In this document: piece after piece, positions 33,808-52,514 of the stretch
How the letters are laid out: the number at the start of each line of letters is the position of its first letter
Position numbering within the stretch: the stretch's first letter is position 1
Source: an uncultured Gammaproteobacteria bacterium
Lineage (GTDB): Bacteria; Patescibacteriota; Microgenomatia; UBA10105; UBA927
Assembly (NCBI GenBank): GCA_964349125.1
Contig: CAYGFH010000001.1
Location: 562,107-626,106 of the forward strand
Direction: 5' to 3'
Length of the DNA: 64,000 nucleotides
Made by a program: the position numbers and the translations under genes
The notes under the pieces: generated by a model
The model's input: the letters and a program-made list of their open reading frames with translations, nothing else
Told to the model about the DNA's origin: nothing
Databases searched by the model: none

Positions 33808-33822
33808 AAATTCTTTGTAGCT

Positions 33823-33898
33823 TGTCTTTGCGAGGAATCCTGAGAAAGGTCGACTAAATTCAGCCGAAGCCCTTGTCGAAGGATGACGCGGCAATCTC
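33823..33898 (+). repeat. REP/MITE-like intergenic element, copy D (TGTCTTTGCGA...GCGGCAATCTC)
   Basis: Conserved termini bracket a variable hairpin-capable insert. Sits between convergent genes. Confidence 0.5.
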
Positions 33899-33959
33899 AT
33901 CATCTTTACGTACGTAGCCCAGAGAACTGAGTAAACCCATTAGGTGCAAGGAGAGCATA

Positions 33960-34250
33960 CTAAATGATAGGGTGATTCGGCAAATAGAATCTGAGCCAGA
34001 GGGTGAGCAGGACACCCAAAACGAGGAGCACCACCAGCATCCACGCGATCGTCTGTGTCAGCGGTTTCCCAAATACACGGCTCCAGAGTGCACTCATACC
34101 GACTGCTGGCAAAGACAACCCACCAATAACTAGAGCCACTATTTTTATAATGGGGATCAGCACCACAGCGGGGAGGATGACGATCGCGTGCGCTTTCGGC
34201 AACATAGTCAGAGCAATAATTCCTACACAAAAAATGGCGATAATATGCAT
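33960..34250 (-). CDS. Small hypothetical membrane protein
   Basis: Three TM helices. Start placed at the internal MHIIAIF. Confidence 0.3.
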   Translation of the reverse strand: MHIIAIFCVGIIALTMLPKAHAIVILPAVVLIPIIKIVALVIGGLSLPAVGMSALWSRVFGKPLTQTIAWMLVVLLVLGVLLTLWLRFYLPNHPII

Positions 34251-34302
34251 AACTCTCGTACCCGGTATCCGATTGGTAGTAACGGGTATACAATGAGTAT
34301 AA

Positions 34303-35670
34303 ATGAAATCTGGCACGCAACAAACTGCGAAACAACTCCTCTATAGCGGCGGCATTGCCGAGATCGTCGACCACCCCACGCCCGTAACCCTTTCATTTCT
34401 CCAAACATGGTTTTCGGGATACGGCTCATTTGGCACAGCAATGCAGTTGCTCGGTTTACCCTTTCATTCATCCACAGACAGCATCCTCATTTGCGTCGAC
34501 GGAGAGTTGTTGGTGGATGTGAGTGCCGAAGAGCGTATGCTCTACGCGGATACCGTACTTGGGTACGGGACGCAAACGGATCATACACACCTGCCCTCAT
34601 TATCCATCCACCCTCTACGGCTTCTGTCTCCATCACACATATGGCAAACTATAAAACTCATCGCAGTGCAAAGTACATGGACAGCAAATCCCGACGGCAT
34701 CATCACCATCATGAACCAGATGGTCGATGCGGTAGCAGTACCCAAACGGTCTCTGACATTTATAGAACTGGATACGCATATCAATACCGTGGTTATGCCC
34801 GCTGTTATCGCAGTCGGATATGTGGCGGAATATTTTCATCAGTATTCACTGCACCAATCCGGTGCGCAGAAAGCCACCATAGAATCATACATTTCCTCAA
34901 AAGTCGCCGAGACAGATTGGATTTTCCATTCAGTGGCGGACCAGTATCTGGTGAAATCAGGCGAGAAATCATTTGACTGGTACATGGATCGCTATGGAAA
35001 CCGCGCCGATCGGGATTTCGAGATTACCTGTCCCAGGTGGTACGAAATACCCGAGCGCATACGAGAACAGATAGATAAAAGTATACAAACGCCCCAGTCT
35101 CGTATTGGGGAGCTCAAAAATGACTCGTTGAAACAGCTCGCAGATACCGTTATTTCTGTGCAGCGGATTCGAAGCCGCTTGAAACAAAAGGCACTCGGAT
35201 ATATAGCACTACTCAGGCGGCAGATCATGGATCTTGTACGGGAAACCGATGCTCTACCCAACGCGACAAGGGAGCAGCTTTTGTCTGGCAATCCTATTAC
35301 CATAACACTCCCTGTACCCGTCCCCACAACACAACAGCCCACTCCTGTACAAAATAGTGGCCGCGGCACACCAATATCGAAAGGGACAGTGACAGGCACA
35401 GTCATCCAAGTCACGTCTTCTCTGATGGATATCCCTGCAGGCACCATCGCCATATTCCCAAACGCCAGTCCCGAGTACAGTATATTGTTTCCGAAATGTG
35501 CCGGGATTATATTTCAAAAAGGCGGACAGACTTCGCACGGAGCGATCGTTGCACGCGAATATGGGATTCCTGCGATTGTGGAAAAGACTGCTCTCGCCAT
35601 ACCAAACAACGTTCGACTCACCATTAATGGTGAACAGGGAACGTGGCAGATAGTGACGTTACAGTCATGA
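34303..35670 (+). CDS. PEP-utilising-enzyme family protein (PEP synthase / rifampicin phosphotransferase-like) with C-terminal mobile His domain
   Basis: C-terminal GGQTSHGAIVAREYGIPAIV swivel-domain motif. Confidence 0.55.
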   Translation: MKSGTQQTAKQLLYSGGIAEIVDHPTPVTLSFLQTWFSGYGSFGTAMQLLGLPFHSSTDSILICVDGELLVDVSAEERMLYADTVLGYGTQTDHTHLPSLSIHPLRLLSPSHIWQTIKLIAVQSTWTANPDGIITIMNQMVDAVAVPKRSLTFIELDTHINTVVMPAVIAVGYVAEYFHQYSLHQSGAQKATIESYISSKVAETDWIFHSVADQYLVKSGEKSFDWYMDRYGNRADRDFEITCPRWYEIPERIREQIDKSIQTPQSRIGELKNDSLKQLADTVISVQRIRSRLKQKALGYIALLRRQIMDLVRETDALPNATREQLLSGNPITITLPVPVPTTQQPTPVQNSGRGTPISKGTVTGTVIQVTSSLMDIPAGTIAIFPNASPEYSILFPKCAGIIFQKGGQTSHGAIVAREYGIPAIVEKTALAIPNNVRLTINGEQGTWQIVTLQS

Positions 35671-35689
35671 TCAGGCGATTGTTGCTATA

Positions 35690-36829
35690 ATGCGCATACG
35701 CATGGAAGCTATCAACGAACCGCTCAAAATTTTATTTATCTATCTGGCTCATCCCCGCCAAAGTCGCGCGGATATGGAATCGGATATTACGGAGCTTTGG
35801 CATCTGGTGACGACTCTTGGTAATGCCCAGGTAGTCGACCTCATCCATCAGAAGGGCTCTGAGTTTCCGGGTACCTACATAGGTCCGGGTAAAGTCGCAG
35901 AAGTCGCGGAGTATCTCACGAGCCACAAGATTGATGCTATTGTCCTCAATGGCCAACTCAAGCCCAGCCAGAAATTTACACTCATGAAAGCGTTCTGGGA
36001 CATGGCGCCAAATATCCATATTTGGGACCGGGTTGATGTGATTTTGGAAATCTTTTCCCGCCATGCCAGAACCACAGAAGCCAAGCTCCAGATCGAGCTA
36101 GCCCGTATGCATAGCATGGGTCCGCGCATTTACGGCATGGGCATGGTGCTCTCCCGTCAGGGAGGCGGTATCGGGACCCGTGGCATCGGAGAAACCAATA
36201 CAGAGCTCATGAGGCGCCACTGGAAGCGGGAAATAAAGAGGGCGACAGACGCGCTCACCAAGTCGGCACAGTCTAGGGCAAGCCAGATGGATCACCGCAA
36301 ACATATCGGCTTACAGACGATATCGATTGTCGGGTATACAAACGCCGGAAAGACATCATTGTTCAATATTCTTACTCACAAGAAACACCTGGTGGAAAAC
36401 GCGCTGTTTGCGACTTTGGACAGTTCGGTAGGAGAAGTATTCCTCCCCTCTCTGGGCAAAAAGGTACTGTTGTCAGACACCATCGGATTTATTGCAAATC
36501 TCCCCCCCTCCCTTATCGAAGCGTTTAAATCTACGCTGATGGAGTCTGTCCACGCTGACATTATTCTCCATGTCATCGATGTGTCCGATCCCCAGATGAA
36601 TGAAAAGGTTCGCGTGGTCCACGACATACTCGCACAGCTGGGCATCCTGCGGGAAAAAGAGGTATATATATTTAACAAAATAGATGCAGCAGCGGATCTC
36701 AACCGCGACACGCTGATAGAGAAAGCGGCAGAAACTCCTCATGTATTTCTCTCCACAAAAACAATAGAAGGTGTGGACACTCTTCTAGAATCTCTCATCC
36801 CTAAACGATTGGCGGACATCAGTACATAA
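35690..36829 (+). CDS. hflX: GTPase HflX
   Basis: HflX N-terminal domain followed by a G domain (G1 GYTNAGKTSLFN, G3 DTIGFI). Confidence 0.85.
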   Translation: MRIRMEAINEPLKILFIYLAHPRQSRADMESDITELWHLVTTLGNAQVVDLIHQKGSEFPGTYIGPGKVAEVAEYLTSHKIDAIVLNGQLKPSQKFTLMKAFWDMAPNIHIWDRVDVILEIFSRHARTTEAKLQIELARMHSMGPRIYGMGMVLSRQGGGIGTRGIGETNTELMRRHWKREIKRATDALTKSAQSRASQMDHRKHIGLQTISIVGYTNAGKTSLFNILTHKKHLVENALFATLDSSVGEVFLPSLGKKVLLSDTIGFIANLPPSLIEAFKSTLMESVHADIILHVIDVSDPQMNEKVRVVHDILAQLGILREKEVYIFNKIDAAADLNRDTLIEKAAETPHVFLSTKTIEGVDTLLESLIPKRLADIST

Positions 36830-36856
36830 AATGCTCCTTGCACTTGAGACTATTGG

Positions 36857-37855
36857 ATGTACTATAGATGTATGACCATCGTTGTCGGACTGTTCTATGG
36901 ATTCCTCGCCTACCTCTTCATCCGAGTTGTCCTCACAGGGTTTTATGTCGTCGAGCAAAACGAACGCGCGGTGAAAACGGTGTTTGGCAAAGCCCAAAAA
37001 ATCAAAGGCAAAACCACACTCGATATTCCTGATTTTGCCGATTCACTGAGGAAAGATGAGCAGGAGCGCTACCAATTCCCGCAACTCAAAGTCATCCCCC
37101 CGGGTGGTTTGTATTTTAAAATGCCGTGGGAAGAAATCCGGAAAGTCTCCATCGCCACACAACTTATTGATATCGGGTTTGATCCGCAGGATCCCTCTGT
37201 CAACGAAAACAATACATCTCTGGCCGCCGTCACCAAAGACCAGCTCAATATCAAACTTCGCGGCCAACTGCAGTATACGGTGTCCGAGCAAAATCTCTAT
37301 GCATTTTTCTTTGGGGTCACCTCCCCCATTGCTCATGTCATGGGATATTTTATTTCCATTTTGCGCGAGCGCATCGCCAATTTTGAAGCACCCGTGAAAC
37401 ACGGTCCCAAAGATTCCCTCCAAGCATCACTTGGCACATCTATCAATGATTTGCGCAAAAACTTAGGAGAATTCAACAGCCATATGGCAGCGGAGTGTCA
37501 TTCCTCAGCTGCCCGCTACGGCATCACCCTGGATGCGGCACTGATCACCGCGCTTGAGCCACCAAATGATGTAGAGTCAGCGCTTGCCGCCATCAACACC
37601 GCACACAATCACGTGTCCTCACAGATCAGTCTTGCGCAGGCAAGCGCCGATCAAAAGATCGTCCAGTCAAAGACGTCCGTGGAAATTGAAACACTCAAGG
37701 CAAAATCGGAAGTACAGGTACTAAACGAAATGGCGTCCCAACTACTGCTCATCAAACAGAGCGGCAAAAAGACGCTTCCTGCATATTTGCGAAACGTCAG
37801 GCTGTCACTCTTATCTCAGGCAAAGAGGATATTTTTGGAGACCAAACATGAATAA
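36857..37855 (+). CDS. SPFH/band-7 protein (HflK-like)
   Basis: N-terminal TM followed by an SPFH domain. It sits directly after hflX, as hflK does in the hflX-hflK-hflC operon. Confidence 0.55.
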   Translation: MYYRCMTIVVGLFYGFLAYLFIRVVLTGFYVVEQNERAVKTVFGKAQKIKGKTTLDIPDFADSLRKDEQERYQFPQLKVIPPGGLYFKMPWEEIRKVSIATQLIDIGFDPQDPSVNENNTSLAAVTKDQLNIKLRGQLQYTVSEQNLYAFFFGVTSPIAHVMGYFISILRERIANFEAPVKHGPKDSLQASLGTSINDLRKNLGEFNSHMAAECHSSAARYGITLDAALITALEPPNDVESALAAINTAHNHVSSQISLAQASADQKIVQSKTSVEIETLKAKSEVQVLNEMASQLLLIKQSGKKTLPAYLRNVRLSLLSQAKRIFLETKHE

Positions 37856-38756
37856 CGCGCTACTCATACCATTTTTTGCGATAGGATTTCTGGTAGCAGA
37901 GTCCATAGTCCTTGGCATTGCCAGATTGTTTGGCGTGTACACCACGGTGCAGGAACGCGAGGCAAAAGTATTTGTGCTGTTCGGCGAAGTGTTGGGGGTA
38001 CTCGATACACCCGGACTCCATAGCCCCCTTGTAGAGTTCGGGTGGAAGGCACTCATCGTAAACATATTCGGAGAGACACATGTGAGAAGTTTGAGTCTCG
38101 ATCAGGAATATATCAGAAGCATTCCGGTGAATTCCGAAGAAGGCACGCCCATGGGAATCGGTGTCTGGTATGAGATGTTTATCTCCGATCCAGTCGCCCA
38201 TATTTTCAAAAACGTGGATCCCGAAGGGTCGCTGACTGCCAATGTGAAAAACGCGACGATCAAGAGTTTAAGTAACCTTCCCTTGGCCCAAATGCTTGCC
38301 AATCGCCACCAGATGTCTGGAGCGGTTCGAAGTGAAGTATCGGCACAGTCCTCTGAATGGGGGTACAAACTGGGGTCTGTTTACATCCGCAAAGTGCACT
38401 TCAGAGACGAAAATATGACCCAGCAGATAGAGGAAAAAGTAGTCAACCAACTGCGTCAGGTCACCTCCGCTATCGAGCAGGACGGACTTAACCAGGTCAA
38501 CGTCATCGCAAGCAAAGCAGAGCAGGAAGCATCCATCGAGCTTGCCAAAGCTGCGGCAGTGAGACCCAAAATCGTAGGAAAATCTCTGGAGGAAATTTCC
38601 AAGGACCCCGAGGTTCTCGACACCATGTTTCAGATATTGGAACAGCAAAAAATTACGGGTGGCAATACGGAGCTCACATTATTGCCTCAGGGCACTCCGA
38701 CAGAATTACTGACGCCGCTTCTGGCTTCCGAAAAAACATCAGGAAATAAAAAGTAG
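37848..38756 (+). CDS. SPFH/band-7 protein (HflC-like)
   Basis: N-terminal TM followed by an SPFH domain. Overlaps the preceding gene by 8 nt. Confidence 0.55.
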   Translation: MNNALLIPFFAIGFLVAESIVLGIARLFGVYTTVQEREAKVFVLFGEVLGVLDTPGLHSPLVEFGWKALIVNIFGETHVRSLSLDQEYIRSIPVNSEEGTPMGIGVWYEMFISDPVAHIFKNVDPEGSLTANVKNATIKSLSNLPLAQMLANRHQMSGAVRSEVSAQSSEWGYKLGSVYIRKVHFRDENMTQQIEEKVVNQLRQVTSAIEQDGLNQVNVIASKAEQEASIELAKAAAVRPKIVGKSLEEISKDPEVLDTMFQILEQQKITGGNTELTLLPQGTPTELLTPLLASEKTSGNKK

Positions 38757-38767
38757 CCTATCTTCAA

Positions 38768-38843
38768 TGTCATTGCGACGTGTCCCGCGAAGCCTTAGCG
38801 TAGTGGGAAGCCTTGGCGAAATGGGAAGTTGCACAGCAATCTC
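38768..38843 (+). repeat. REP/MITE-like intergenic element, copy A (TGTCATTGCGA...CAGCAATCTC), followed by AACCATGAAC and a heptamer tract
   Basis: Seen directly. Starts 12 nt after the stop of the hflC-like gene. Confidence 0.55.
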
Positions 38844-38866
38844 GTCCCTCACTTTCAACCATGAAC

Positions 38867-38908
38867 GGTTAACGGTTAACGATTCGCGGTTCGCGATTTA
38901 TGATTTAT
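38867..38908. repeat. Heptanucleotide tandem tract (CGGTTAA CGGTTAA CGATTCG CGGTTCG CGATTTA TGATTTA)
   Basis: Six 7-nt units with consensus CGRTTWA. The tract ends at the stop codon of the convergent ABC-F gene. Confidence 0.6.
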
Positions 38909-40359
38909 TTTTCCAAATCCAGCGTCTGATGGATTTTAATTTTTTCCACAAACTCGGGAATATGGGATACCAGCACGAGTGCTCCCTCATATGCGCTGAT
39001 GGCTTCGGCGATCACCGGCAAATGTCGGAAATTTATGTGGTTCGTTGGCTCATCCATGATCAGCAGTCCCGGTTCCATCAGCACGAGCCTGGCAAACGAT
39101 AAGAGTCCCTTTTGTCCTTCAGAGAGGCTTTTAATCTTGGCGGTTATCAGTTCCCCGGTGAGCAAAAATCCTGCAGCAGTGGCTCGCAGTTTCTGTTCGT
39201 TCAGCTGACAGTCAGATAGCTGCACCGCTTTGACGAGCGATTCCCACACGGTATCATTGTAGTCCAGTGTGCGGAAATCCTGACTGTAGTACCCTACTCT
39301 CACGCCGGGCGTGATCACCACTCCATCTGCTTTTCCGTTTGCGATGGCATCAATGAGTGTGCTTTTCCCGATCCCATTTGGCCCTTCGATCAACAGATGC
39401 TTCCCCCGAGTGAGTAGGACATGCGCGGGCTTTGTTACGACTTCATGGTTTTTCATGATAGACACACTGTCTATCCGTATCGCATCGCTTCCCAAATTTT
39501 TCTGTACGGGGATGGTGAATTTCCGTATCGTTTTATCTTCCCGTCGTATGTCGACTTTTTCGTCCTCAAGTTTTTCAATTTTCTCTCGCATTTTTTGGGC
39601 GACGTTTCGCATCTTACCGCCTTTATTGGCAAAGAAGTTGGCCTTCTCTTTATTGTCTGCGATCATCCGTTCCCGCTGCGCATTCTCTCGCTGCTGCTGT
39701 TCTATGCGGGTCTGGATTTCTTCCACCACATCCAGATAATTTCCCTGGTACTGTTCTATCTTTTTGGTAAAGCTGTCGAGGTACAGCACTCCTTGGGTAA
39801 ATGCATTTAAAAAGTCCGCATCATGAGAAATCACAATCACACTCTTGGGATACATCATCAGAAAATACATGAGGTGATCTATCCCCGCCCGATCCAGATT
39901 ATTGGTCGGCTCATCGAGAAGGAGTAAGTCGGGATCTTGTATCAGGGCCGATGCCAAAAGGAGCCTCGCCTTTTGTCCACCGGAGAATGATTTGATGTGT
40001 TTGTCAGCGGGCGCATGCAGGTTAACTGCATCCAGTACCCCTGCCATTCTTCTCTTCACATCATAACTTTCCGTATTGCAGCGCTTGGTGAAAAATTCCT
40101 CGATAGTCAGGTCGTACTCTTCAGGATCTATCACCTGGTGTGCTGTTGCCACGGTCAGCGATTTGTCGACACTGATTCTGCCGGATGTGGGAGTCAGTGC
40201 CCCCGTAAGCAGCTTGAACAGTGTGCTTTTTCCCGCACCGTTTTGTCCCATGAGTGCGACTTTCATTTCTTCTCGCACGGAAAAGCTCGCCTCATCGAGG
40301 ATCTGTTTTCCGTCACCATACTGGTAACTTACTTCATCAAAACGGATTATTGTTTTCAT
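38905..40359 (-). CDS. ABC-F family ATPase (two tandem ABC domains, no TMD; EttA/Uup-like)
   Basis: Two Walker A motifs (GQNGAGKST and GPNGIGKST) and two LSGGQK/LSEGQK signatures with an inter-domain linker. Confidence 0.85.
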   Translation of the reverse strand: MKTIIRFDEVSYQYGDGKQILDEASFSVREEMKVALMGQNGAGKSTLFKLLTGALTPTSGRISVDKSLTVATAHQVIDPEEYDLTIEEFFTKRCNTESYDVKRRMAGVLDAVNLHAPADKHIKSFSGGQKARLLLASALIQDPDLLLLDEPTNNLDRAGIDHLMYFLMMYPKSVIVISHDADFLNAFTQGVLYLDSFTKKIEQYQGNYLDVVEEIQTRIEQQQRENAQRERMIADNKEKANFFANKGGKMRNVAQKMREKIEKLEDEKVDIRREDKTIRKFTIPVQKNLGSDAIRIDSVSIMKNHEVVTKPAHVLLTRGKHLLIEGPNGIGKSTLIDAIANGKADGVVITPGVRVGYYSQDFRTLDYNDTVWESLVKAVQLSDCQLNEQKLRATAAGFLLTGELITAKIKSLSEGQKGLLSFARLVLMEPGLLIMDEPTNHINFRHLPVIAEAISAYEGALVLVSHIPEFVEKIKIHQTLDLEK

Positions 40360-40459
40360 ACTGATTTCTTTGTTTTGGATCTGTAAATCGAAACACCCAA
40401 AGCGTAGATATACACGCCAAGCTGAAGTATCGAAGATATCGCAAAACGAAGTAACAGTA

Positions 40460-41098
40460 TTATATCATGCGAAGCGTTGACAGTATTTCAGTATCGTTTT
40501 GTATGTAATACCTGATTTCCAGGTTCTCCGGATCAAGCAGGCTGTACAACGCGCGGATATCACGGTCAGTATGCCTCACGCACCCGGAACTGCCTGGAGT
40601 ATCCGCTCCAAGTTTGGACACATCCCCATTCACACCATGAAGTCCGAATGCCCCTGGAAGCACCCAGTCGCACCCTCCACCACATTCAGGGTACGGCACG
40701 GGTCCATACGGAGACCCCTCAGACACGGGCACGTCCAGCTCCAAAAAATACGGTGCCGTCTCGGGATTATCTGTTGGGTATTTCGCGGTGATGAACCAAT
40801 ATGGCCTTCCAACTAATTGCGGCACAGGAGTAGGACGCTCGTTTGGTATGCCTGTTTTTACCCGAAAAAACGCAATTGGCATACTGGCATGGGAAACTCC
40901 GGGTTGACCGAAATACAGTACCTCCACCTGCAACTCTCGTGAGAGGGAGAACCAAAATCCATATGCTGTTATCATTTGGTCAATTGCCCGCACTGCATGC
41001 ACGCGAGGGAGTGTCACGTACACACACAGCGAAAAAACCGATAGAATGGTCCCAATCTGATAAAATACCTGTATGATGAGACGTGCAGTTCTGTTCAT
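40460..41098 (-). CDS. L,D-transpeptidase (YkuD-family)
   Basis: Catalytic motif HG...SSGCVRHTDRDIRALY. Start placed at MNRTARL... (signal anchor), which puts it 26 nt past the start of the divergent gene. Confidence 0.55.
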   Translation of the reverse strand: MNRTARLIIQVFYQIGTILSVFSLCVYVTLPRVHAVRAIDQMITAYGFWFSLSRELQVEVLYFGQPGVSHASMPIAFFRVKTGIPNERPTPVPQLVGRPYWFITAKYPTDNPETAPYFLELDVPVSEGSPYGPVPYPECGGGCDWVLPGAFGLHGVNGDVSKLGADTPGSSGCVRHTDRDIRALYSLLDPENLEIRYYIQNDTEILSTLRMI

Positions 41099-42164
41099 CG
41101 TGTTGGGTATTGTATCAATACTTGCGTGGCGGTGGTACCACCCACCGTTTGTCCCCGTTGTCACGGGTATCCCCACCCGACCGACTCCTACTGTCACACC
41201 CACACCATCTCCGACTCCGAAGCCTATTCCCGCATCGTTTCTGATACCGGGTGGCACGCATGTATTTCAGACATTTAACAACTGCGGTCCCGCCGCGTTA
41301 TCGATGGCACTATTCTATGTCGGTATAAACAAAAACCAAACTGAACTGGGGCTCGAGCTTCGTCCGTATCAGGTGCCTGGAGGAGACAACGATGACAAGT
41401 CCGTGACACTTAAAGAACTGGGAGATAAAGCCATAGCATTAGGGCTCGTTTCCTATCACCGTCCGGGCGGCACCACCCAGTTGGTGAAACGGTTTATCGT
41501 AGCAGGCATTCCGGTGATCACCAGAACGAGACTGAAGAAGGAAGATGACATAGGACACTTCAGAATTATCAAAGGGTACGATGATGCCTCGGGCGAATTT
41601 ATACAGGATGATTCTCTGCAAGGGAAAAACCTCCGGTATTCGTACGCCGATTTTTCTGCACTCTGGCAGACCTTCGGGTATGAGTATCTTATTATTTCCC
41701 GCCCGGAAAAAATCGCAGAAATTCTTGCCATATTGGGCGATCAGGCGGATGAAACGGTCGCATGGAGGCACGCAGCAGATCAGGCAAGAAATGTGCTCAA
41801 AACTAACCCATCAGATATGTATACAGGCCTAAATCTCTCCGTTGCTTTGTATCATATTGGGGATTTCTCCGGGTCTGTAGCAGAATTTGAGAAAGTGGAA
41901 TCCCGACTTCCCTTTCGCACGCTCTGGTACCAAATCGAGCCGATGTTATCGTACTATGAACTGAAACATGACGCCCGCGTGTTTGACATTACAGACAGGA
42001 TTCTCAGCAATCAGAATCGCGCGTATTCTGAACTCTACCTACTTCGTGGGCGCGTCTACCAAAGACAGGGAAACACAGAAAAAGCCCGCGAAGAATTTGC
42101 AAAAGCGGTACTCTATAATACGTCACTGGGAGAAGCCCGTGAGGCGCTAAGTTCTCTACGCTAG
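41073..42164 (+). CDS. Peptidase C39-like domain protein with C-terminal TPR repeats
   Basis: NNCGPAALSMAL (catalytic-Cys context of the C39-like fold) and a TPR-like C-terminus. Confidence 0.5.
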   Translation: MMRRAVLFIVLGIVSILAWRWYHPPFVPVVTGIPTRPTPTVTPTPSPTPKPIPASFLIPGGTHVFQTFNNCGPAALSMALFYVGINKNQTELGLELRPYQVPGGDNDDKSVTLKELGDKAIALGLVSYHRPGGTTQLVKRFIVAGIPVITRTRLKKEDDIGHFRIIKGYDDASGEFIQDDSLQGKNLRYSYADFSALWQTFGYEYLIISRPEKIAEILAILGDQADETVAWRHAADQARNVLKTNPSDMYTGLNLSVALYHIGDFSGSVAEFEKVESRLPFRTLWYQIEPMLSYYELKHDARVFDITDRILSNQNRAYSELYLLRGRVYQRQGNTEKAREEFAKAVLYNTSLGEAREALSSLR

Positions 42165-42363: not shown

Positions 42364-42415
42364 ATCTCCAGTATACACTGGTGTATTTTAATCAGGTGCA
42401 TAGTACACTATATCT

Positions 42416-43267
42416 ATGAACCGACCTGAACAATCAAACAATGTATATAAAATGCTTTCGATCGCATTACTCTGTCTTTTTGCAGGACTTGGGATTGGCT
42501 ACTATATAGCCAAAAATCCGGTGAGAGTTTTTGAACCGCAGGGATGTACAATGGAAGCAAAAATCTGTCCTGACGGATCCGCTGTCGGACGCACTGGTCC
42601 GAAGTGCGAGTTTAGCCCCTGCCCACCTGAGACGAGAAAACAACCACAGGGTGACACAAACACGACAACAAATTCGGGCAGGTTTAGCAAACGATTGTTT
42701 GATCCCAATGGAACAATCATAGAGACTGCACCATTCCCCAAGGAAATGACGAAAATATCAGATAGCGCACTGGTTGGATTACAGTGCTCAGGGTTTTACT
42801 ACAATTACGGGAATGGGGGGTTTTTGATGGAAACAGAATCAGGATCAAAAGAGATGACGGATGCCCTACTACTTGATGTGGCCAGTAAACATCCGACGAT
42901 ATCTGCCCTATCCTCATGTAGGACAGAAACAGGCGGCACCATAGTACACTATGAGATTGAAGCAGGAGCTGCAGGTGCTGGGAACACCTCTTCCTTTTTT
43001 ACTCTGGAGACAGATGGCAGTCTCAAAAAGATTTCAAGTATATCCAATGACGGTGCACCGTATTTCATTTGCAGCAGACCGTACATGCTGACAGATAAAA
43101 ATATAGTGTATTGGGGGTGCGGCGGCGGAGACGGCGGATTCGGCCAATCATCCGTCTATGCGATCGACTTGAATACATCTTCAACCAGAAGAGTTATCAA
43201 GTGTACATCCACCGCAGACAGCGAGTCAGCCGATCCCGGCGGACCAAGTACAGTGAAGTGTGAATAG
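42416..43267 (+). CDS. Hypothetical secreted protein
   Basis: N-terminal signal anchor. No known domain. Confidence 0.35.
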   Translation: MNRPEQSNNVYKMLSIALLCLFAGLGIGYYIAKNPVRVFEPQGCTMEAKICPDGSAVGRTGPKCEFSPCPPETRKQPQGDTNTTTNSGRFSKRLFDPNGTIIETAPFPKEMTKISDSALVGLQCSGFYYNYGNGGFLMETESGSKEMTDALLLDVASKHPTISALSSCRTETGGTIVHYEIEAGAAGAGNTSSFFTLETDGSLKKISSISNDGAPYFICSRPYMLTDKNIVYWGCGGGDGGFGQSSVYAIDLNTSSTRRVIKCTSTADSESADPGGPSTVKCE

Positions 43268-43281
43268 ATCTTTCATTCATT

Positions 43282-43345
43282 TGTCATTGCGAGCGAAGCG
43301 CGGCAATCTCGCTTTTCTTGTTTGTCATTCAAACCATCAACCATA
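43282..43345 (+). repeat. REP/MITE-like intergenic element, copy B (TGTCATTGCGAGCGAAGCGCGGCAATCTCGCTTTTCTT...)
   Basis: Starts 15 nt after a stop codon. GCGAG/CTCGC stem followed by a T-run. Confidence 0.55.
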
Positions 43346-43372
43346 AAATAGAAACTATCCGGCTATGCTTTG

Positions 43373-44266
43373 TTATTTCGCCTTAGGCTTCTGTAGCTCA
43401 AGCGGCTCCATAGTTAAAATTCGGGAGTGTACAGGATCAGGAGCATTGGGTTTTATAAGGAACGGTAACGATAGTATCAATATATTTATGAGAGTAAATT
43501 CAGATACCACAGCGTACATTCGATTGAGAATCAATAGTCCCCAAGCAAGCATAATCATAAATAGCACTTTTGCAGGAGTGGTGTTTTCTTCGGTAAAATT
43601 CTTTATAACACACCCCATATACTCACGTATTTCCTCCAAACGCTCGGGCATTGTCTGACGTTTGCTTGGTATGGGAATGATAAACAACAGTCCCAGAATA
43701 GGAAGTCCAATGGAAGCAAACATCATACCGGACATAATAATCTGCAACACTGGCACGCGAACAAGCACATCAAACGATGGGAATATTTTTGTAAACTGAT
43801 CCAGCTGTATAAAAAACAGCATCAGATATATCAGATCATTCCAAAAGTACAATACAATTTGTTTTGTGTAGTCCAGCTCTCTTCTCTCAAAAATACTATG
43901 GATCACGATTGCGGTGGGGATAACTGATATGCAAATCAAAGGAGGAACAAACCGAGCAGGAATCAAAAACAGTATGGCATACCAGAGGATAATAGAATGT
44001 ACAGCAACGATATGTTCATTTACTTTCGGTATAAGCGCATTTCTAAATGAAAAAAAGGTCAGACTGATACAAATAAAAAAATATTTAATTAAGTGATCAT
44101 GTATATCATAGTGCGTCTCATTTTTATCAGGCAGAAGCCCGAGAAAGAAGGAGAATAGGATAACAAAAACAAAATTCCGTACAGCAGTCAGATTCTGTAA
44201 TTTTGGAGCAACATGCAAAAAGATGCCGAGACTAAACCAGAAGGTAACTATATAGGCAGGATCCAT
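43373..44266 (-). CDS. Hypothetical polytopic membrane protein
   Basis: About 8 predicted TM helices. Confidence 0.35.
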   Translation of the reverse strand: MDPAYIVTFWFSLGIFLHVAPKLQNLTAVRNFVFVILFSFFLGLLPDKNETHYDIHDHLIKYFFICISLTFFSFRNALIPKVNEHIVAVHSIILWYAILFLIPARFVPPLICISVIPTAIVIHSIFERRELDYTKQIVLYFWNDLIYLMLFFIQLDQFTKIFPSFDVLVRVPVLQIIMSGMMFASIGLPILGLLFIIPIPSKRQTMPERLEEIREYMGCVIKNFTEENTTPAKVLFMIMLAWGLLILNRMYAVVSEFTLINILILSLPFLIKPNAPDPVHSRILTMEPLELQKPKAK

Positions 44267-44334
44267 AAAACTATCGTACTCTTTTTGTATAAAAATCTGT
44301 AGACTGGCTTTTCCGCGTTTGCTACATTGTATAT

Positions 44335-44466
44335 ATGAAACGAAAATCTTCCATAAAGCCGAAGAGTAAGAAAACCTCCCGTCCCCTTCTTATCGGCATC
44401 ACTTCAGCAGCTCTTGCTCTACTTGCCACAGTCGCAGGCTTCCTTAAAGGCACGAAGTGTAAATAA
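44335..44466 (+). pseudogene. Internally deleted paralog remnant of the thermonuclease gene at 52601..53272 (43 codons)
   Basis: MKRKSSIKPKSKKTSRPLLIGITSAALALLATVAGFLKGTKCK* matches the N-terminus (RPLLIGITAAALALLTSVA) and C-terminus (GFVKGTKCK*) of the full-length nuclease. Confidence 0.45.
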
Positions 44467-44479
44467 ATTTACATCTAGC

Positions 44480-45460
44480 TTATTTTCCCAACAAAAGTGT
44501 GATCAGGCCAATAATTGTATCTTTTTTTGATGGGGCACTTTCTGCAATCAGAAGCGTTAATACAGTGAGTGCATCTGGAGAAAGTTTTTTAGAATCAAGG
44601 CGTTTTGCCCGATTTAAAAACCACACAAAGGCAAACGCACCAGAGCGTTTATTCCCATCAATAAACGGATGATTCTTTACGATAAAATACAGCAGGTGTG
44701 CTGCTTTTTCTTCAATACTTGGATACACATCTTCATCATTAAATGATTGGAGGATATTTCCAACGATTCCTTCAATTGCCTGCTTTGTTCTTTCTACAGC
44801 AAACAAGTCACTCGCCTCGCCTTTTCGAATCAATTCTTTCTTTAGAAGCTCAATACTACCAAGTAAATCGCCAGAAGTTACAGCTAGAGTTTTTTTAGTA
44901 ACTCCAACTCCAGTAAATACACCTCTGTCGTATGCATCCAAAGAAAACCAGGTGTGTGCAAATTCTTTTATTAGATCTATTACTTTCTTTGAATCTATCT
45001 CTGTGGAACCAGGCAGCAATGTCTGTATCTCAGTAACTGATTTCATAAACGCATCGTAATTCTTCGCGATTCGTTTTCGATTGATCGTATATCCATTGGT
45101 AATATGATCACGCAACGTTTTGGTTGCCCAAATACGAAATTGTGTTGCCCTTTTGGAATTTACTCTATATCCGACAGATATAATCATATCTAGGTTATAG
45201 TGATTCATCTCACGCTCAACATTTCTTGCTCCTTCTTTTTGAACTATCCGGAAATTCCGGAGAGTTGACCGTTCTTTAAGCTCAGAATCTGAATAAATGT
45301 TGAGTATATGCTCACTCACAGTCCTTATGTCGATATCAAATGCAGAAGCGATTTGCGCCTGTGTTGCCCAAATGGTTTCATGTGTGACATCTCCTCGGAG
45401 TTCTATTGCCCCGTTTTTCGCCTGATAAATAATTGGCTGCTGAACCACTTTCTGTTTCAT
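44480..45460 (-). CDS. RhuM-family protein with C-terminal Fic/Doc domain
   Basis: RhuM-type N-terminus (IIYQAKNGAIELRGD...ETIWATQAQIA) and the Fic/Doc core motif HPFIDGNKRSG. Confidence 0.7.
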   Translation of the reverse strand: MKQKVVQQPIIYQAKNGAIELRGDVTHETIWATQAQIASAFDIDIRTVSEHILNIYSDSELKERSTLRNFRIVQKEGARNVEREMNHYNLDMIISVGYRVNSKRATQFRIWATKTLRDHITNGYTINRKRIAKNYDAFMKSVTEIQTLLPGSTEIDSKKVIDLIKEFAHTWFSLDAYDRGVFTGVGVTKKTLAVTSGDLLGSIELLKKELIRKGEASDLFAVERTKQAIEGIVGNILQSFNDEDVYPSIEEKAAHLLYFIVKNHPFIDGNKRSGAFAFVWFLNRAKRLDSKKLSPDALTVLTLLIAESAPSKKDTIIGLITLLLGK

Positions 45461-45561
45461 ACAAAATTAGTATATCACCACTTTTTATAATACATTTCAT
45501 CGCGACGAATCTTGAGCTTATCAAAGGGATGACACTAAAAGCATATAGAATATATATTTAA

Positions 45562-46710
45562 TTATTTTCTTTCAGAAAATATATTGAGATATTCTTTATA
45601 GAGATAAGATTGACCATACGTTATATCAGTATCTTTTGGAGAAAGAATATTCATCTCAATAAATCGATTAATCACCTCTTGAGAACCAGGTCTGCTAAAG
45701 CCAGTCCATTGTTGAATAACTGCCACATTTATAATTGGCTGCGCAAAGAGTTTAGGCATAACGAGCATCGCTGATTCCGCAGCACGTTTGCCTAAATTCT
45801 GAATCTTCATCATATCCTGCTCGCGGAGTTTTGTAATCTTGTCTACCGTAATAATAGCTTCATTAGCAATTTCTATAACACCATCAAGGAAAAAATCTAT
45901 CCACGAAACAACATTACCATTGTGATAACTAGTTAATTTTTCATAATAGACTTCTTGATGTCTTTTAAAATATGAAGAAAGGAAAAGAACAGGGCTTTCT
46001 AGAAAATGCTCATGCCACAGGAAAAAGGTAATAAGCATTCTGCCGGTTCTTCCATTTCCATCTAGGAAAGGATGAATAGTTTCAAATTGAGCATGCAATA
46101 TACCTGCTTTAATTACAGTAAGTAAGTCATCATTCGCATAAAAATATTTCTCCAATTCATCAAGCGCTTGTTTCATTTCTTCTACAGGTGGTGGAACATA
46201 TCTAGCGTTATCTGGTCTTGTACCACCTATCCAATTTTGGGTTTTTCTAAACTCACCAGGATCTGCGAAATGTGTAGCTCTGGCTTTACTCATAAGTTCC
46301 TTATGTAATTCCCTCAAAAAACGGAGTGAGAATGGAAAATTTTCCTTCTTCGCCCTGTCCATACCGTATCGAAGTGCAGTAATATAATGGAGAATATCAT
46401 CCACATCAGCAGGGACATTTGTGTTTGTTTTTACTTCCGCTTCGATAGCGTCAATCATAGTGGCCATGGTACCTTCAATCTGGCTTGAAGCGGCGGCATC
46501 TTTTCGCAAATACATCAGGAGAAAGAAATCCAAATCTGGAAGTAATTTAGTAATTCCATCAAGCTTGCCGACGAGTCTTGTAGCCTCACTGGCTTTTTTA
46601 ATAGTTGTGCCGTCAAAGATAAATCCACCTTCGGGAGGAAACTGAGCAGGAATAAATGCTTTAAAACCTTGAGGTTGTTTTCGCAAAATTCCGATCGTAT
46701 TGGCGTCCAT
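45562..46710 (-). CDS. Fic-family protein (adenylyltransferase-like)
   Basis: Canonical Fic motif HPFLDGNGRTGR. Confidence 0.85.
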   Translation of the reverse strand: MDANTIGILRKQPQGFKAFIPAQFPPEGGFIFDGTTIKKASEATRLVGKLDGITKLLPDLDFFLLMYLRKDAAASSQIEGTMATMIDAIEAEVKTNTNVPADVDDILHYITALRYGMDRAKKENFPFSLRFLRELHKELMSKARATHFADPGEFRKTQNWIGGTRPDNARYVPPPVEEMKQALDELEKYFYANDDLLTVIKAGILHAQFETIHPFLDGNGRTGRMLITFFLWHEHFLESPVLFLSSYFKRHQEVYYEKLTSYHNGNVVSWIDFFLDGVIEIANEAIITVDKITKLREQDMMKIQNLGKRAAESAMLVMPKLFAQPIINVAVIQQWTGFSRPGSQEVINRFIEMNILSPKDTDITYGQSYLYKEYLNIFSERK

Positions 46711-46872
46711 ACTTTGTTACTATCTTTTTAGAGATGTAAACAAACTATACTACTTAGTTTACATCTTGTCAAGTGATGTAAACAAACTTATACGTGGATT
46801 TAAGCCATTAATACACGGTTTCTCTACATAATATCTTCTGTCGATTCACGATTAGCGGTTACCCCTTTTCCC

Positions 46873-47508
46873 TTATAAATTCTCTCCACACGTATTCTCA
46901 CACTGAAACACCTGCTCGGGATCATTAGGAAATTTCTTTTCGCATGCCTGCACACAGGTTTTACACGCAGTAAATTGTGTGTCTTCAATTTGTTTGCATG
47001 ATCCATTCACTACACCGCACGTTGCAAATTGCCGACACCGGTCTCCAAGTTGATACATCTCCGTGCACATCTGGGCGGGATTGCTTCCGCAGACGATGTC
47101 CAGCCCATGGCAATTTTCTATTCCACAGGTTGAAGTTATTACAGGAGGTTTCGTATCGGGATTATTTAGTCCCGTGCATCTATAATTTATTTCCGCCGTT
47201 CTTGTTTCTTCTTTCACCACACATGCCGGGTTGCATCCCTCATGTCTGCTGTTTAGATTTGCACTAAACCACCAGGTTTTAGAGTATTCATTATATGTTC
47301 CAGACCCAAGTGCTTCCCCACCTTTTATACAGGAGTTTTCCGCTATGTTTCGAGCTTCCTTTTCCGTCAACAGTGCATTTGCTGTATTCGTTGGTTTTTT
47401 GGAAAAGAGCACATCATACTTAGACAGCACAAACATGCCGATAGCGAAGACAATTCCAAGTGCCACACAAAACGCAAGAACAGTTTGAAGTATTTTACTC
47501 ATATTCAC
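46873..47508 (-). CDS. Hypothetical Cys-rich secreted protein
   Basis: Signal anchor followed by about 20 Cys in the mature part. Confidence 0.35.
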   Translation of the reverse strand: MNMSKILQTVLAFCVALGIVFAIGMFVLSKYDVLFSKKPTNTANALLTEKEARNIAENSCIKGGEALGSGTYNEYSKTWWFSANLNSRHEGCNPACVVKEETRTAEINYRCTGLNNPDTKPPVITSTCGIENCHGLDIVCGSNPAQMCTEMYQLGDRCRQFATCGVVNGSCKQIEDTQFTACKTCVQACEKKFPNDPEQVFQCENTCGENL

Positions 47509-47525
47509 ATCTTATCAGGATTCAT

Positions 47526-48077
47526 TTATTTAGGAAGCGAACTCTTAACGCATGCGCTGACAATTCGTTCAACGATTGGTTCGGATTGTGTTGGCTCAGC
47601 CCAAAGAGTCGGCTCTGTAAATGCGATGGAAAAAGCCTCAAAATCTATACTTTTTCCAATTAGCTCTTTTTGTAATTGTGCTTTCATTTGATCAAATTTT
47701 GAGTCAAGTATATTACCTGCAACTGTGATCTCGTTATCGAAATTTATGCTTATAGCACCACGAATGGATGCATGGGATATATCTACTGCTGGAGTTGTGT
47801 TATCAAAATATGCTGAAATAAACATATCTTTCCATTCCATTTCCCAAAATACTGAATTATCAGAGTATCTACTGAAATTGATAGCAACCGTATTACCTTC
47901 AAAATCAGAAAATTCCTGTCTGCCTGTCCAAGATATACTGTCATCCATACCAAAAGTTTCTTGCACACGCCTGGTAAACGTAACTCCTTCTAATCGTTTA
48001 TTCCATTTAACTATATCTTCTGGTCGCATGGACCTTTCATGTTCATTCATAACATTGCTTGCATTATTATACTGCAA
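47526..48077 (-). CDS. Hypothetical protein
   Basis: ORF only. Confidence 0.3.
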   Translation of the reverse strand: MQYNNASNVMNEHERSMRPEDIVKWNKRLEGVTFTRRVQETFGMDDSISWTGRQEFSDFEGNTVAINFSRYSDNSVFWEMEWKDMFISAYFDNTTPAVDISHASIRGAISINFDNEITVAGNILDSKFDQMKAQLQKELIGKSIDFEAFSIAFTEPTLWAEPTQSEPIVERIVSACVKSSLPK

Positions 48078-48171
48078 TATGAAATTTCATAAAATGAATT
48101 GGAGCAGCAGATTTTATGAATCCTCAACTTCACCATTCATAATTCAAATATAGTAGTATCATACCTACTAC

Positions 48172-48684
48172 ATGCCACACCAGATATTTCATGAATCGGT
48201 CGTATATCTATATGTCCTTACGCTCAGCATTATTCTGACTGTTGCGTATATACAAGGGTTGCTCACCTCATTTCTACAAGCAGGATTATCCATCATATCT
48301 TGTGCATTTGATCTCATTTTTGGAAAAATATTTTTAGGTTGGGTATCACGCACCCGCGACGCAATAGCCTTTCGCATCACGGATCCCGTAAATTCGTTTA
48401 TAGACAGAATACCCAGAGGCTTCAAAGCCATGTTTTTTACACTGTTAGGATACAGCATATTTGTGTTGGATCATCTGTATAACACGACACTATTTGCAGA
48501 AGATGAAACAACATTTTATGACATTGTTATATACGGTCACAAATACTGGATAACAGATTATGCTCTCATGATTGGTGGAGTATTTCTTTCTTATGGACTC
48601 CTGTATTTTTTTATTCTTATCTCAGAAGTCATTCTTTATTTCGTCGACCGACGCATTAAAATTTTCGTCGTAGTACGGAGGTAA
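48172..48684 (+). CDS. Hypothetical membrane protein
   Basis: Four predicted TM helices. Confidence 0.3.
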   Translation: MPHQIFHESVVYLYVLTLSIILTVAYIQGLLTSFLQAGLSIISCAFDLIFGKIFLGWVSRTRDAIAFRITDPVNSFIDRIPRGFKAMFFTLLGYSIFVLDHLYNTTLFAEDETTFYDIVIYGHKYWITDYALMIGGVFLSYGLLYFFILISEVILYFVDRRIKIFVVVRR

Positions 48685-48779
48685 CCCCGGTTAACAACAG
48701 TAACGCACTTGAAAGTGCAGATAATACACCTCTCTTGTTCATTTGCTCTTTTACACCCCAAGTCTTATAGTATCAGTAT

Positions 48780-49930
48780 ATGCCACGGGATATCGTAAAA
48801 GAAGCACAACGTATAGAGCTCCATACCAATTCTTCAGATGATGCGCGTGATAGTATGTTCGACGATGCGGTGCAACTTGTTGCAAAACACGACATGGCTT
48901 CAGCATCTCTGCTTCAACGCAACCTTTCATTCGGGTACGCCAGGGCAGCCAGAGTACTCGATCAACTCGAAGAAGCAGGTGTCATTGGTCCTGCCGAAGG
49001 GTCCAAACCTCGTGAAGTCCTTATTTCTTCGTATGAAGACTATATAAATAGATCATTTAAAAAGCCAAACGTTGCCCTTGATGAAACAGATCCTGATTGG
49101 AACTCCTACAAATCTCCGAATTGGAAATCGCATGTAACACACTCATCATCAATTCTGCTGTTTGACGCAATTTCCAAAAACAGTGGTACTTCCCCGTTAT
49201 CGTTTCCAATCGGCTGGGAAAAAGAATCACTGAAAATCACGACTCTGTTAGAGACACCGCACTGTATTATCACGGGAAGCCCGCACAGCAGAAAATTGGA
49301 ATTTTTGGATACCATGCTTTTGTCACTTATAGCAGTAGCGTCTCCAATAAATTTGCGCATAGTGCTACTCGACGGCGCTCATTATTTGTCGCCATATACC
49401 GGCATTCCTCATCTGCTCACGCCGGTTACAGCTGAACCGGATAAAGCACTCGCAGCACTTCGGTGGGGAGAAATGGAAATGGAGCGCAGATGGAACGAAT
49501 TTTCAAAAGCAAACTGCAGGGATATTGCCTCATATAACAAAGCGTCATCAAATCCCATGAGTCATATAGTGTATGGCATCACCCAGATAGAGTATGTATG
49601 TCCTATGCAACAAATGAATTCATAGAGGGTCTTAAACATCTGACGTCGTTGGGATCCCGCGCCGGAATTCATATGGTGCTGGTATCAGATTCATTAGCAT
49701 CCCGTACTATTGCCAAAGAGATTAGAGAAAATATTCCAAATGTCATCTCGTTTAAGTCGACATGGGATGGAAGTTCAAAGCCAAAAGACTCCGAAGGTCT
49801 CGCACCAAACGAATTACTGTATAAAAATGATGCGGATAACACAGTAACGACACTGGATGCTCCATTGTTAGAAGAATCCGAAGTTCTAGGAATTCTTACG
49901 GAAATAAAAAAGAGCAACAATCATCCTTAG
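48780..49930 (+). pseudogene. Degenerate FtsK/SpoIIIE-like ATPase with an N-terminal gamma domain, split by a frameshift (48780..49625 frame 0; 49598..49930 frame 2)
   Basis: Gamma domain [10 protein letters not shown]...[27 protein letters not shown] at the N-terminus. Motor-domain blocks [24 protein letters not shown] and, in the second frame, AGIHMVLVSDSLASRTI...IPNVISF. The Walker A is degenerate (ITGSPHSRK rather than GTTGSGKS) and the Walker B is LLDG. Confidence 0.6.
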
Positions 49931-50379
49931 AAATTCTCTATCACAAGTTTTTTCATTTCCATCATATTGGCAAATGCATTCGGGCGCTTCATCAGTTCCC
50001 CCATATTCTCCGGGACTATTTGCCAACTTAACCCGTATTTGTCTTTGCACCATCCGCACTGTTCGGATTCCTTGACGCTTGAAAGCTTACTCCAATAATA
50101 ATCAATTTCTTCCTGATCTTTACATGGGACGGCAAAAGATACAGATTCATTAAACGTAAATTCAGGTCCGGCATTGATTGCCATAAATTTGTTGCCAGAA
50201 AGTTCAAATTCTACTGTCAATACTTTTCCGGCCAAGTCTTTTTGAAAATCAGCCAGTCCCTCACTGGGATAATATTCTGTGGACAATATTTTACTGTCAG
50301 GAAATACAGATACATAAAAGTCTACAGCTTCCTTCGCATTCCCATTGAACCATAAATTTGGAGTGATCGTTTTTTTCAT
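49927..50379 (-). CDS. VOC-family protein, PhnB-like
   Basis: MKKTITPNLWFNGNAKEAVDFY N-terminus typical of the PhnB/3-demethylubiquinone-9 methyltransferase-like glyoxalase fold. Confidence 0.55.
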   Translation of the reverse strand: MKKTITPNLWFNGNAKEAVDFYVSVFPDSKILSTEYYPSEGLADFQKDLAGKVLTVEFELSGNKFMAINAGPEFTFNESVSFAVPCKDQEEIDYYWSKLSSVKESEQCGWCKDKYGLSWQIVPENMGELMKRPNAFANMMEMKKLVIENF

Positions 50380-50421
50380 ATGATTTATTGTAACATACCA
50401 CACATAACGCACTCGCACAGT

Positions 50422-50462
50422 TGTCATTGCGAGTCCCGATGCACTTCGGGACGCGGCAATCT
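50422..50462 (+). repeat. REP/MITE-like intergenic element, copy C, with perfect inner hairpin GTCCCG-ATGCACTT-CGGGAC
   Basis: TGTCATTGCGA [hairpin] GCGGCAATCT, followed by AACCATGAAC and a heptamer tract. Confidence 0.6.
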
Positions 50463-50498
50463 ACTCACTGACTACGAACCACCAACCATGAACTAACA

Positions 50499-52417: not shown

Positions 52418-52514
52418 ACTTCAATTATAGTATCGCTGATCACAAACACCAGATCCTATTTCGAGATTGCGTATGACTACTCTAATCAATCACTCGCATT
52501 CCATCTTTTATAAA

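Follow-up and report, generated by a model that had tools for sequence, protein, structure and literature searches.

What is the short repeat that recurs between genes at positions 33823 to 50463 of a 64-kb stretch of contig CAYGFH010000001.1, and what might it be for? This stretch, here called the window, comes from a metagenomic contig of 809 kb. An earlier note made from its letters alone had described four intergenic copies, here named A to D, of an element with conserved ends around a variable hairpin. That note had read them either as a repetitive extragenic palindromic (REP) or miniature mobile element or as a family of small structured RNAs or terminators. We find that the copies are probably non-autonomous members of an "ATTGC" subclass of the DNA hairpin repeats that make up the superfamily of Ssn-related motifs (SRMs) and TGTC-tagged REPs, Ssn being a small single-domain GIY-YIG nuclease. 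A repeat that had seemed unexplained and lineage specific is now placed in a family explained biochemically only in 2025. What the analysis adds is a broadly distributed SRM subclass that escapes the published motif, along with evidence for turnover of its sites in a lineage resembling the candidate phyla radiation (CPR).

Four tagged hairpins in the window

Each of the four copies lies on the plus strand and pairs a 5′ motif, TGTCATTGCGA, with a 3′ end no more than 80 nt away. The 5′ motif had been described as common to all; it is exact at 38768, 43282, and 50422 (copies B, C, and D), and copy A carries one mismatch (TGTCtTTGCGA at 33823). The 3′ motif GCGGCAATCTC is exact at 33888 and 43300 and takes the form GCGGCAATCTA at 50453. 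When one mismatch is allowed, the window holds six matches to the 5′ motif where 1.9 are expected, an excess that is modest by itself (2 of 100 shuffles reach six), and four matches to the 3′ motif where 0.74 is expected (0 of 100 shuffles reach four). Pairing of both ends on the same strand within 80 nt, four times over, is far above chance, and the four copies proposed earlier are real. Isolated motif matches at 17862, 56339, and 11993 lack the partner half and were set aside as chance matches.

The copies differ in their state of preservation. Copy C (43282-43310, plus strand) is the minimal canonical element, 29 nt reading TGTC ATTGC GAG C-GAA-G CGCG GCAAT CTC; it had been delimited as 43282-43345. 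Copy D (50422-50463, plus strand) is also canonical, with a 7-bp distal hairpin (GTCCCGA-tgcact-TCGGGAC) and the 3′ end …GCAATCTA; the perfect GTCCCG-N8-CGGGAC hairpin previously assigned to the copy at 43282 is located here. Copy A (33823-33898, plus strand) is expanded and partly decayed, consisting of TGTCtTTGCGAG, a 52-nt interior, and CGCGGCAATCTC; an A-to-T change disrupts its GTCAT tag and first stem pair, and nested in its interior, at 33837-33884, is a hairpin that belongs to another SRM class, ATCCTGAG…CGAAGGAT. Copy B (38768-38843, plus strand) joins a canonical 5′ end, TGTCATTGCGAc, to a divergent 3′ end, cACAGCAATCTC, so that the element finishes in aCaGCAATCTC and not in the GCGGCAATCT ascribed to it; an 18-nt tandem repeat in 2.2 copies (GAAGCCTTAGCGAAATGG) occupies 38789-38828. 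The nested hairpin in copy A and the tandem repeat in copy B suggest insertion or slippage in the distal arm.

A fifth copy had been suspected beyond these four. It is present on the minus strand at 52463-52503, decayed and in the opposite orientation, reading tggaATGCGAG…CGCAATCTC on that strand; its 3′ half agrees at 9 of 11 positions, and the 5′ tag and one stem base are gone. A partial second 5′ end (TGTCATTC) at 43322-43329, 12 nt past copy C, may be the remnant of a tandem copy.

ATTGC…GCAAT followed by C is kept in all four copies and the TGTC tag in B, C, and D; in copy A, TGTC is followed by T, not A. The ends, once given as complementary over CATTGC/GCAATC, pair over ATTGC/GCAAT only. 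The proposal that the interior can always fold is only partly right. Copy D as single-stranded DNA reaches −11.2 kcal/mol (z = −3.7 versus shuffles) and is the sole copy that is clearly stabler than shuffled sequence; C (z = −0.1), A (+0.6), and B (−0.1) show no excess stability. Copies C and D adopt the predicted fold, and the minimum-free-energy fold of copy B leaves the ATTGC/GCAAT stem unclosed. Copies C and D look competent as predicted Ssn-type sites, and decay or rearrangement seems to have affected A, B, and the 52463 remnant.

The surrounding genes are ordinary chromosomal genes. Copies A, B, and C begin 11 to 15 nt past the stop codons of plus-strand genes; the earlier note had placed every copy 12 to 30 nt downstream of a stop codon. 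Copy D departs from this pattern: it is antisense to the minus-strand genes on either side, with a stop codon 74 nt away and the next start codon at a distance of 43 nt. B, C, and D apart, a generic search of the window for GTCA-tagged hairpins with a 5-bp stem gave a chance-level result (12 versus 8.0).

A hairpin class found across bacterial phyla

The repeat had been called specific to its lineage, and it is not. A scan of one genome per species (596 Gb) for TGTCATTGCGA-N(5-35)-GCGGCAATCT found the same ends in at least 120 stretches, whose hosts span no fewer than 17 bacterial phyla; by our calculation, about 8 chance matches of the gapped pattern are expected in a database of this size. 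Hosts among the matches listed include Planctomycetota, Chloroflexota, Patescibacteria, Elusimicrobiota, Fibrobacterota, Bacillota, Bacteroidota, Ignavibacteriota, Nitrospirota, Gemmatimonadota, Verrucomicrobiota, Thermodesulfobacteriota, alpha-, beta-, and gamma-Proteobacteria, Zixibacteria, Dadabacteria, Aminicenantes, and Hydrogenedentota. A few of the genome matches (e.g., L042 and L095) form no hairpin and look like chance. The 28-nt core of copy C, TGTCATTGCGAGCGAAGCGCGGCAATCT, recurs verbatim in Sedimentisphaerales, Dehalococcoidia, Bacteroidota, Pseudomonadota, and others, and near-identical elements occur in many more.

The pattern is also present in 58 viral contigs (IMG/VR, L124-L181). 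Many of these represent one group of related phages, with the elements placed between structural genes. About 19 viral contigs with common capsid and structural proteins carry hairpins between genes, some in several copies each; such tolerance of the sites by phages is odd if Ssn restricts single-stranded DNA.

To define the element, we collected 413 copies from the 178 pattern-seeded loci with the looser pattern TCATTGCGA-N4-60-GCAATC. At the 5′ boundary (394 elements), the two positions preceding the fixed TCATT are T (0.83) and G (0.99), and G (0.94) follows TCATTGCGA. The 3′ side reads CG[C/A/T][G/A]GCAATC, and the two positions past the fixed GCAATC are T (0.88) and C (0.64). Conservation disappears outside the element ends, giving sharp boundaries, TGTC-ATTGC-GAG…CGNR-GCAAT-CTC.

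Between these ends, the sequence of the interior hairpin varies freely with pairing kept. Covariation of the inner hairpins, a check that the earlier note had proposed, is present: among 38 distinct 39-mers, 89% of cells are paired, compared with 73% in column shuffles and 22 to 55% with slid partners, and double-sided changes number 79 against 26 expected (0 of 500 shuffles attain the observed score). A change of GAG to GAA covaries with a change of CGCG to TGCG, which pins down the G-C pair closing a conserved internal loop (GA opposite GNR). The lengths of the counted windows, each comprising the element and 2 nt of flank per side, cluster at the odd values 29, 33, 35, 37, and 39 nt, in keeping with a 3-nt loop on a stem that grows by whole base pairs, two nucleotides per step.

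Read along the top strand, the element consists of an unpaired (T/C)GTC tag, a 5-bp stem ATTGC/GCAAT, an asymmetric GA/GNR internal loop closed by a G-C pair, a distal hairpin that varies freely, and an unpaired tail that starts with C and is usually CTC. The distal hairpin may be as short as 1 bp or form long arms, most loops have 3 nt, and element cores run from about 21 to 74 nt. Only 34% of elements fall in long open frames, compared with 80% of random segments, so the class is mostly intergenic. Neighboring copies favor convergent pairs with gaps of 9 to 43 nt, an arrangement like that of REP or BIME dimers. The earlier reading of the repeat as a family of repetitive extragenic palindromic hairpins, probably mobile or mobilizable, is supported.

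Among those of the 178 loci with an absolute GC skew of at least 0.03, the TGTC… strand, which is the putatively cleavable one, is the C-rich strand 173 times and the other strand 116 times, and all four window copies are on the C-rich plus strand. Avoidance of the lagging-strand template might account for this bias. Gene orientation is a confounder, and elements within one locus are not independent, so we regard the bias as a lead only.

Relation to SRMs and other known hairpin systems

The hairpin repeat that these features most resemble is the NTS of Neisseria, CGTCATTCCCGCGMAVGCGGGAATCYRG, which has the layout CGTC-ATTCCCGCG-MAV-CGCGGGAAT-CYRG (PMC11893778). NTS-like SRMs flank homologues of SsnA, a 94-aa single-domain GIY-YIG protein (cd10448), in many phyla, and the NTS-ssnA-NTS architecture is like that of an insertion sequence (IS) (PMC11893778). 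SsnA and three homologues bind the hairpin solely as single-stranded DNA and on one strand only; the RNA version is not bound, and double-stranded DNA is not a substrate (PMC11893778). Binding depends most on the C that directly follows the palindrome, and cleavage on the three nucleotides that precede it; the loop tolerates removal or extension, and four Ssn/SRM pairs show strand-specific cleavage a few nucleotides upstream of the tag (PMC11893778). In N. meningitidis, the system lowers the integration of transforming DNA that bears the NTS (PMC11893778).

The ATTGC class shares much of this anatomy. Both have an unpaired (C/T)GTC tag and a palindrome that begins and ends with AT and is followed by C and a short tail; both are defined in orientation, mostly intergenic, and multicopy; and both occur as hairpin-gene-hairpin units around a single-domain GIY-YIG gene of about 95 to 100 aa, found for the ATTGC class in other genomes. 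The freely variable distal hairpin corresponds to the dispensable, extendable NTS loop. The near-invariant positions of the ATTGC class coincide with the NTS positions critical for binding and cutting; they are the G (0.99) directly ahead of TCATT, which the search pattern fixed, and the T (0.88) and C (0.64) past the fixed GCAATC. The two differ in the stem (ATTGC versus ATTCCC), which in the ATTGC class extends for 5 bp and then gives way to the conserved GA/GNR internal loop, and in the tail (CTC versus CYRG).

A second relative is the CGTC-tagged REP superfamily, which includes dRS3 of Neisseria and RPE-4/6 of Rickettsia; no CGTC- or TGTC-tagged family is flanked by RAYT genes, and bulged variants would, according to the authors of that survey, escape their search (PMC3733652). 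In these REPs, CGTC is often TGTC, complementary A and T "almost invariably" open the stem, and like the ATTGC class the repeats have a 3-nt unpaired tail, form dimers, occur in several phyla, and have no associated RAYT. Their tail is CCA where that of the ATTGC class is CTC, and head-to-head dimers predominate among them, in contrast to the tail-to-tail (convergent) neighbors seen here.

Integron attC sites are, like the ATTGC class, single-stranded DNA hairpins in which the base stem is conserved, an unpaired or extrahelical feature identifies the strand, and the terminal structure varies. However, the ATTGC class has no R″/R′ boxes (RYYYAAC/GTTRRRY), no cassette array, and no nearby intI, and its sequence is conserved, not its structure alone. 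We dropped attC, kink-turn RNAs, and CRISPR repeats as candidates, since their defining sequence features are absent. A full-text literature search with GTCATTGCGAG and its reverse complement returned unrelated primers only, a search on GIY-YIG with COG2827 gave nothing useful, and RepRanger 2025 makes no mention of the ATTGC class.

ATTGC hairpins flank small GIY-YIG genes in other genomes

Clustering of the open reading frames (ORFs) in the 178 element-bearing loci revealed no abundant neighbor family; clusters that recur in the viral loci are phage structural genes held in common, not element-associated enzymes. The only recurrent small neighbor is a GIY-YIG ORF, found four times, always within about 310 nt of an element. 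Three of the four (in L002, L035, and L161) are bracketed on both sides at 0 to 64 nt, with the upstream copies co-oriented with the gene. These three are intact and encode proteins of 98 to 101 aa that match PF01541 only; the remaining one (in L005) is a truncated ORF of 60 aa. NCBIfam has no specific model for the proteins, and their nearest PDB entry is 1zg2, a UPF0213 protein (E = 2e-6). This link was invisible to the earlier reader because the nuclease gene is not in the window.

We then reversed the test, starting from 83 genes in 80 metagenomic loci that encode homologues at 49 to 64% identity. A GTC-tagged hairpin with a 5-bp stem lies within 300 nt of 76 of the 83 genes, on both sides in 53. 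The published SRM string is matched at 29 genes. The ATTGC class occurs at 11, on both sides in 6, and its upstream copies are always co-oriented with the gene (12 to 0). The dominant flanking arm is ATTCC (27 genes; NTS-like, e.g., TGTCATTCCCGCGAAAGCGGGAATCCA), followed by ATTGC (16), ATCCC (11), and ATCCT (9). Proteins flanked by different arm classes are about 53 to 55% identical, those of the ATTGC and ATTCC groups about 53%, and the nearest-neighbor protein has the same hairpin class in 38 of 82 cases, compared with 0.17 expected by chance, which hints at co-evolution of enzyme and site.

Sites turn over between related genomes

Named homologues of one flanking protein come from Patescibacteria/CPR, and related loci in which gene order is conserved could be compared with the window at sites A and B. 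Empty sites in related genomes, another check that had been proposed, were found for copy A: the window has a 152-nt spacer (33808-33959) where L263 and L265 have 0 to 1 nt, so that the two convergent genes overlap or abut. At site B, L262, in which the flanking protein is 98% identical, carries an SRM of another class (TGTCATCCCCG…CGGGGAT) at the same position past the same stop codon; L263 has other repeats and no SRM there, and L265 has no spacer. A copy of D that is 93% identical lies in L262 (4815-4856), at a non-homologous locus whose segment is absent from the window. L121-L123, which are 100% identical to the window, were rejected as uninformative about empty sites. On these comparisons of sequence, the elements turn over between related Patescibacteria-like genomes, which is modest evidence on the mobility of Ssn/SRM units.

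Near the syntenic region, L263 (12098-12415) and L265 (9527-9850) have genes for proteins with the TfoX_N domain, TfoX being a regulator of competence. These genes could matter if Ssn/SRM acts on transforming DNA in CPR-like organisms.

Predicted mechanism and points against it

The best-supported reading, drawn by analogy, is that the window copies are orphan Ssn-type sites for a GIY-YIG nuclease that is, or formerly was, encoded elsewhere in the genome. The mechanism is modeled on Ssn enzymes of Neisseria, N. elongata, N. wadsworthii, and Wolbachia studied in vitro. The hairpin would form when the top strand becomes single stranded, as may happen in incoming transforming DNA, in intermediates of replication or repair, or in the single-stranded DNA of phages or of conjugation. 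A cognate single-domain Ssn of about 95 to 100 aa would then bind the stem and the 3′ C and cut a few nucleotides ahead of the GTC tag, on its 5′ side, leaving a nick. It would not act on the complementary strand, on double-stranded DNA, or on RNA. In the window, cuts are predicted on the plus strand, a few nucleotides 5′ of 33823, 38768, 43282, and 50422. The role may be restriction of incoming single-stranded DNA or mobilization. Hairpin-ssn-hairpin would constitute an IS-like unit, and the dispersed hairpins would be its orphan ends, spread within and between genomes.

Several observations weigh against this assignment. The published SRM string, HGTCWYN(0-2)YYVSBRHN(0-5)WNVSBRGN(0-2)RNCYNB, which is operational and was built from 29 genomes, matches 0 of the 413 ATTGC-class elements and none of copies A to D, while an NTS control matches. 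Biochemical data come from four Ssn/SRM pairs of other classes; an ATTGC-flanked Ssn is known from genes alone, and only 11 of the 83 homologous GIY-YIG genes carry the exact ATTGC class. Neither the window, the 64 kb of the 809-kb contig that the search covered (best hmmsearch E = 0.11), nor the related loci L262-L265 yielded a GIY-YIG/Ssn gene. Four CGTC-tagged REP families have continuous stems of 8 to 9 bp and loops of 4 to 5 nt, and the ATTGC class has neither. Copies A and B fold no better than shuffled sequence. Finally, we found no consistent excess of target-site duplications and no other insertion signature; mobility is therefore argued only from presence or absence among relatives at 80 to 98% protein identity.

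The SRM string misses the ATTGC class because of its YY positions (here GC) and the long interior of the ATTGC elements. Because of the 0-of-413 result, we file the ATTGC class as a distinct variant within the SRM kind, a kind already explained in the literature. Since the published string passes over a very widespread subclass, censuses of Ssn targets are probably underestimates. For programmable single-stranded DNA tools, the subclass suggests a scaffold in which a 5-bp stem and an internal loop would be enough and the distal arm would be free.

A bolder version of this reading, which we consider possible but doubtful, makes the ATTGC hairpin-ssn-hairpin unit an active mobile element with a 98-aa GIY-YIG "transposase." It would then represent a new IS superfamily, with the orphan hairpins as its MITE-like derivatives. 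The spread over at least 17 phyla, including CPR/Patescibacteria, and over phages with 12-nt ends kept is consistent with such activity, as are the nested structure of copy A (insertion into loops of other SRMs) and the bias toward the C-rich strand, putatively the leading-strand template.

Alternative explanations

A role at the RNA level, in which the hairpins would be terminators, stabilizers of mRNA 3′ ends, or small structured RNAs, is unlikely. In its favor, E. coli REPs stabilize upstream mRNA, copies A, B, and C sit 11 to 15 nt past the stop codons of co-oriented genes at convergent junctions, and a moderately T-rich stretch comes after copy C. Copy D, however, is antisense to both of its neighbors, all four copies fail a terminator scan and have no T-tails, and A and B are no stabler than shuffles. 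No Rfam family matches the window at the gathering threshold, and nothing relevant appears at E ≤ 10 over 33500-52800. A terminator needs structure only, and the unpaired, strand-asymmetric tags of this class are identical in sequence across at least 17 phyla and occur in both orientations as dimers. The characterized Ssn enzymes, in addition, do not bind the RNA version of their hairpin (PMC11893778).

It is quite unlikely that the repeat is at heart a lineage-specific composite, a BIME-like protein-binding or regulatory mosaic of hairpin, box, and heptamer tract, although local evidence for such a unit exists. The AACCATGAAC box that the earlier note saw after two copies was confirmed after B (38857-38866, plus strand, 13 nt past the copy) and D (50484-50493, plus strand, 20 nt past), and a variant, AACCATCAAC, lies 21 nt past C (43332-43341, plus strand); the consensus is AACCAT[GC]AAC, 13 to 21 nt downstream of all three. 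Heptamer tracts were likewise confirmed: (ACGATTW)n follows D at 50505-50539 (plus strand), further intergenic tracts occupy 38864-38906 (past B), 46841-46861, and 52513-52576, and the unit is matched 17 times where 2.5 are expected. The D-like copy in L262, at another locus, is followed by a CCATGAAC version of the box (about 4873-4880) and a heptamer tract. An ACGATTW tract also occurs in L262 at 6990-7050, and the same spacer of L263, the relative at 80% identity, has units TTCTCGT and TTGGATT instead (about 7050-7240).

Yet the box is absent within 60 nt downstream of the 413 elements of other genomes (0 times), and heptamer-like tracts are near only 10 of them, so that the hairpin exists and spreads without either. 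Within the window, copy A has neither box nor tract, and in the case of the reversed remnant the tract, at 52513, is on the opposite side. A local composite function would leave the pan-bacterial element unexplained. Because the box is absent and tracts are rare elsewhere, we regard box and heptamer tracts as a local extension and not as part of the pan-bacterial element; the box may belong to a longer, lineage-specific composite unit. The tracts resemble STRR-type heptamer repeats of cyanobacteria.

Classical REP/REPIN elements moved by RAYT, a Y1 HUH transposase of the IS200/IS605 type, would also be extragenic palindromes, short and imperfect, that carry an unpaired tetranucleotide tag at the 5′ end and form inverted dimers. 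The parallel extends to a single-copy nuclease or transposase gene flanked by hairpins that are recognized as single-stranded DNA, to many orphan hairpins, and to the lack of target-site duplications in both. This explanation is nonetheless very unlikely. The tag is (T/C)GTC and not the GTAG of REPs in Enterobacteria and Pseudomonas, and the gene that the hairpins flank encodes a GIY-YIG and not an HUH Y1 enzyme. ORF clustering in the 178 loci found no transposase-like family near the elements, the GIY-YIG gene being the sole recurrent small neighbor. REPs are species specific, unlike the ATTGC class with its near-identical 12-nt ends across phyla, and RAYT genes flank no CGTC- or TGTC-tagged family (PMC3733652).

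Chance similarity or low-complexity coincidence, which the modest enrichment of the single 11-mer (6 versus 1.9, with 2 of 100 shuffles reaching 6) might allow, has a negligible claim against the four pairings of both ends in the same order and strand, the verbatim recurrence of the 28-nt core of copy C in other phyla, and the covariation of the inner hairpin.

Other features of the window

Copy D and the decayed copy lie in a low-GC block (about 44000-64000; GC of 0.32 to 0.40, compared with 0.48 at 32 to 42 kb) that looks like a defense or mobile island. Its genes include ones of the Fic/RhuM type, a type I restriction-modification system with two HsdS genes, ThsB-TIR, and tandem NERD-domain genes. 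A segment of about 145 nt occurs there in three direct copies, 81 to 100% identical and about 1 kb apart (61319-61463, 62329-62473, and 63299-63443), and each copy adjoins a minus-strand ORF from a tandem paralogous set in which one member has a NERD domain.

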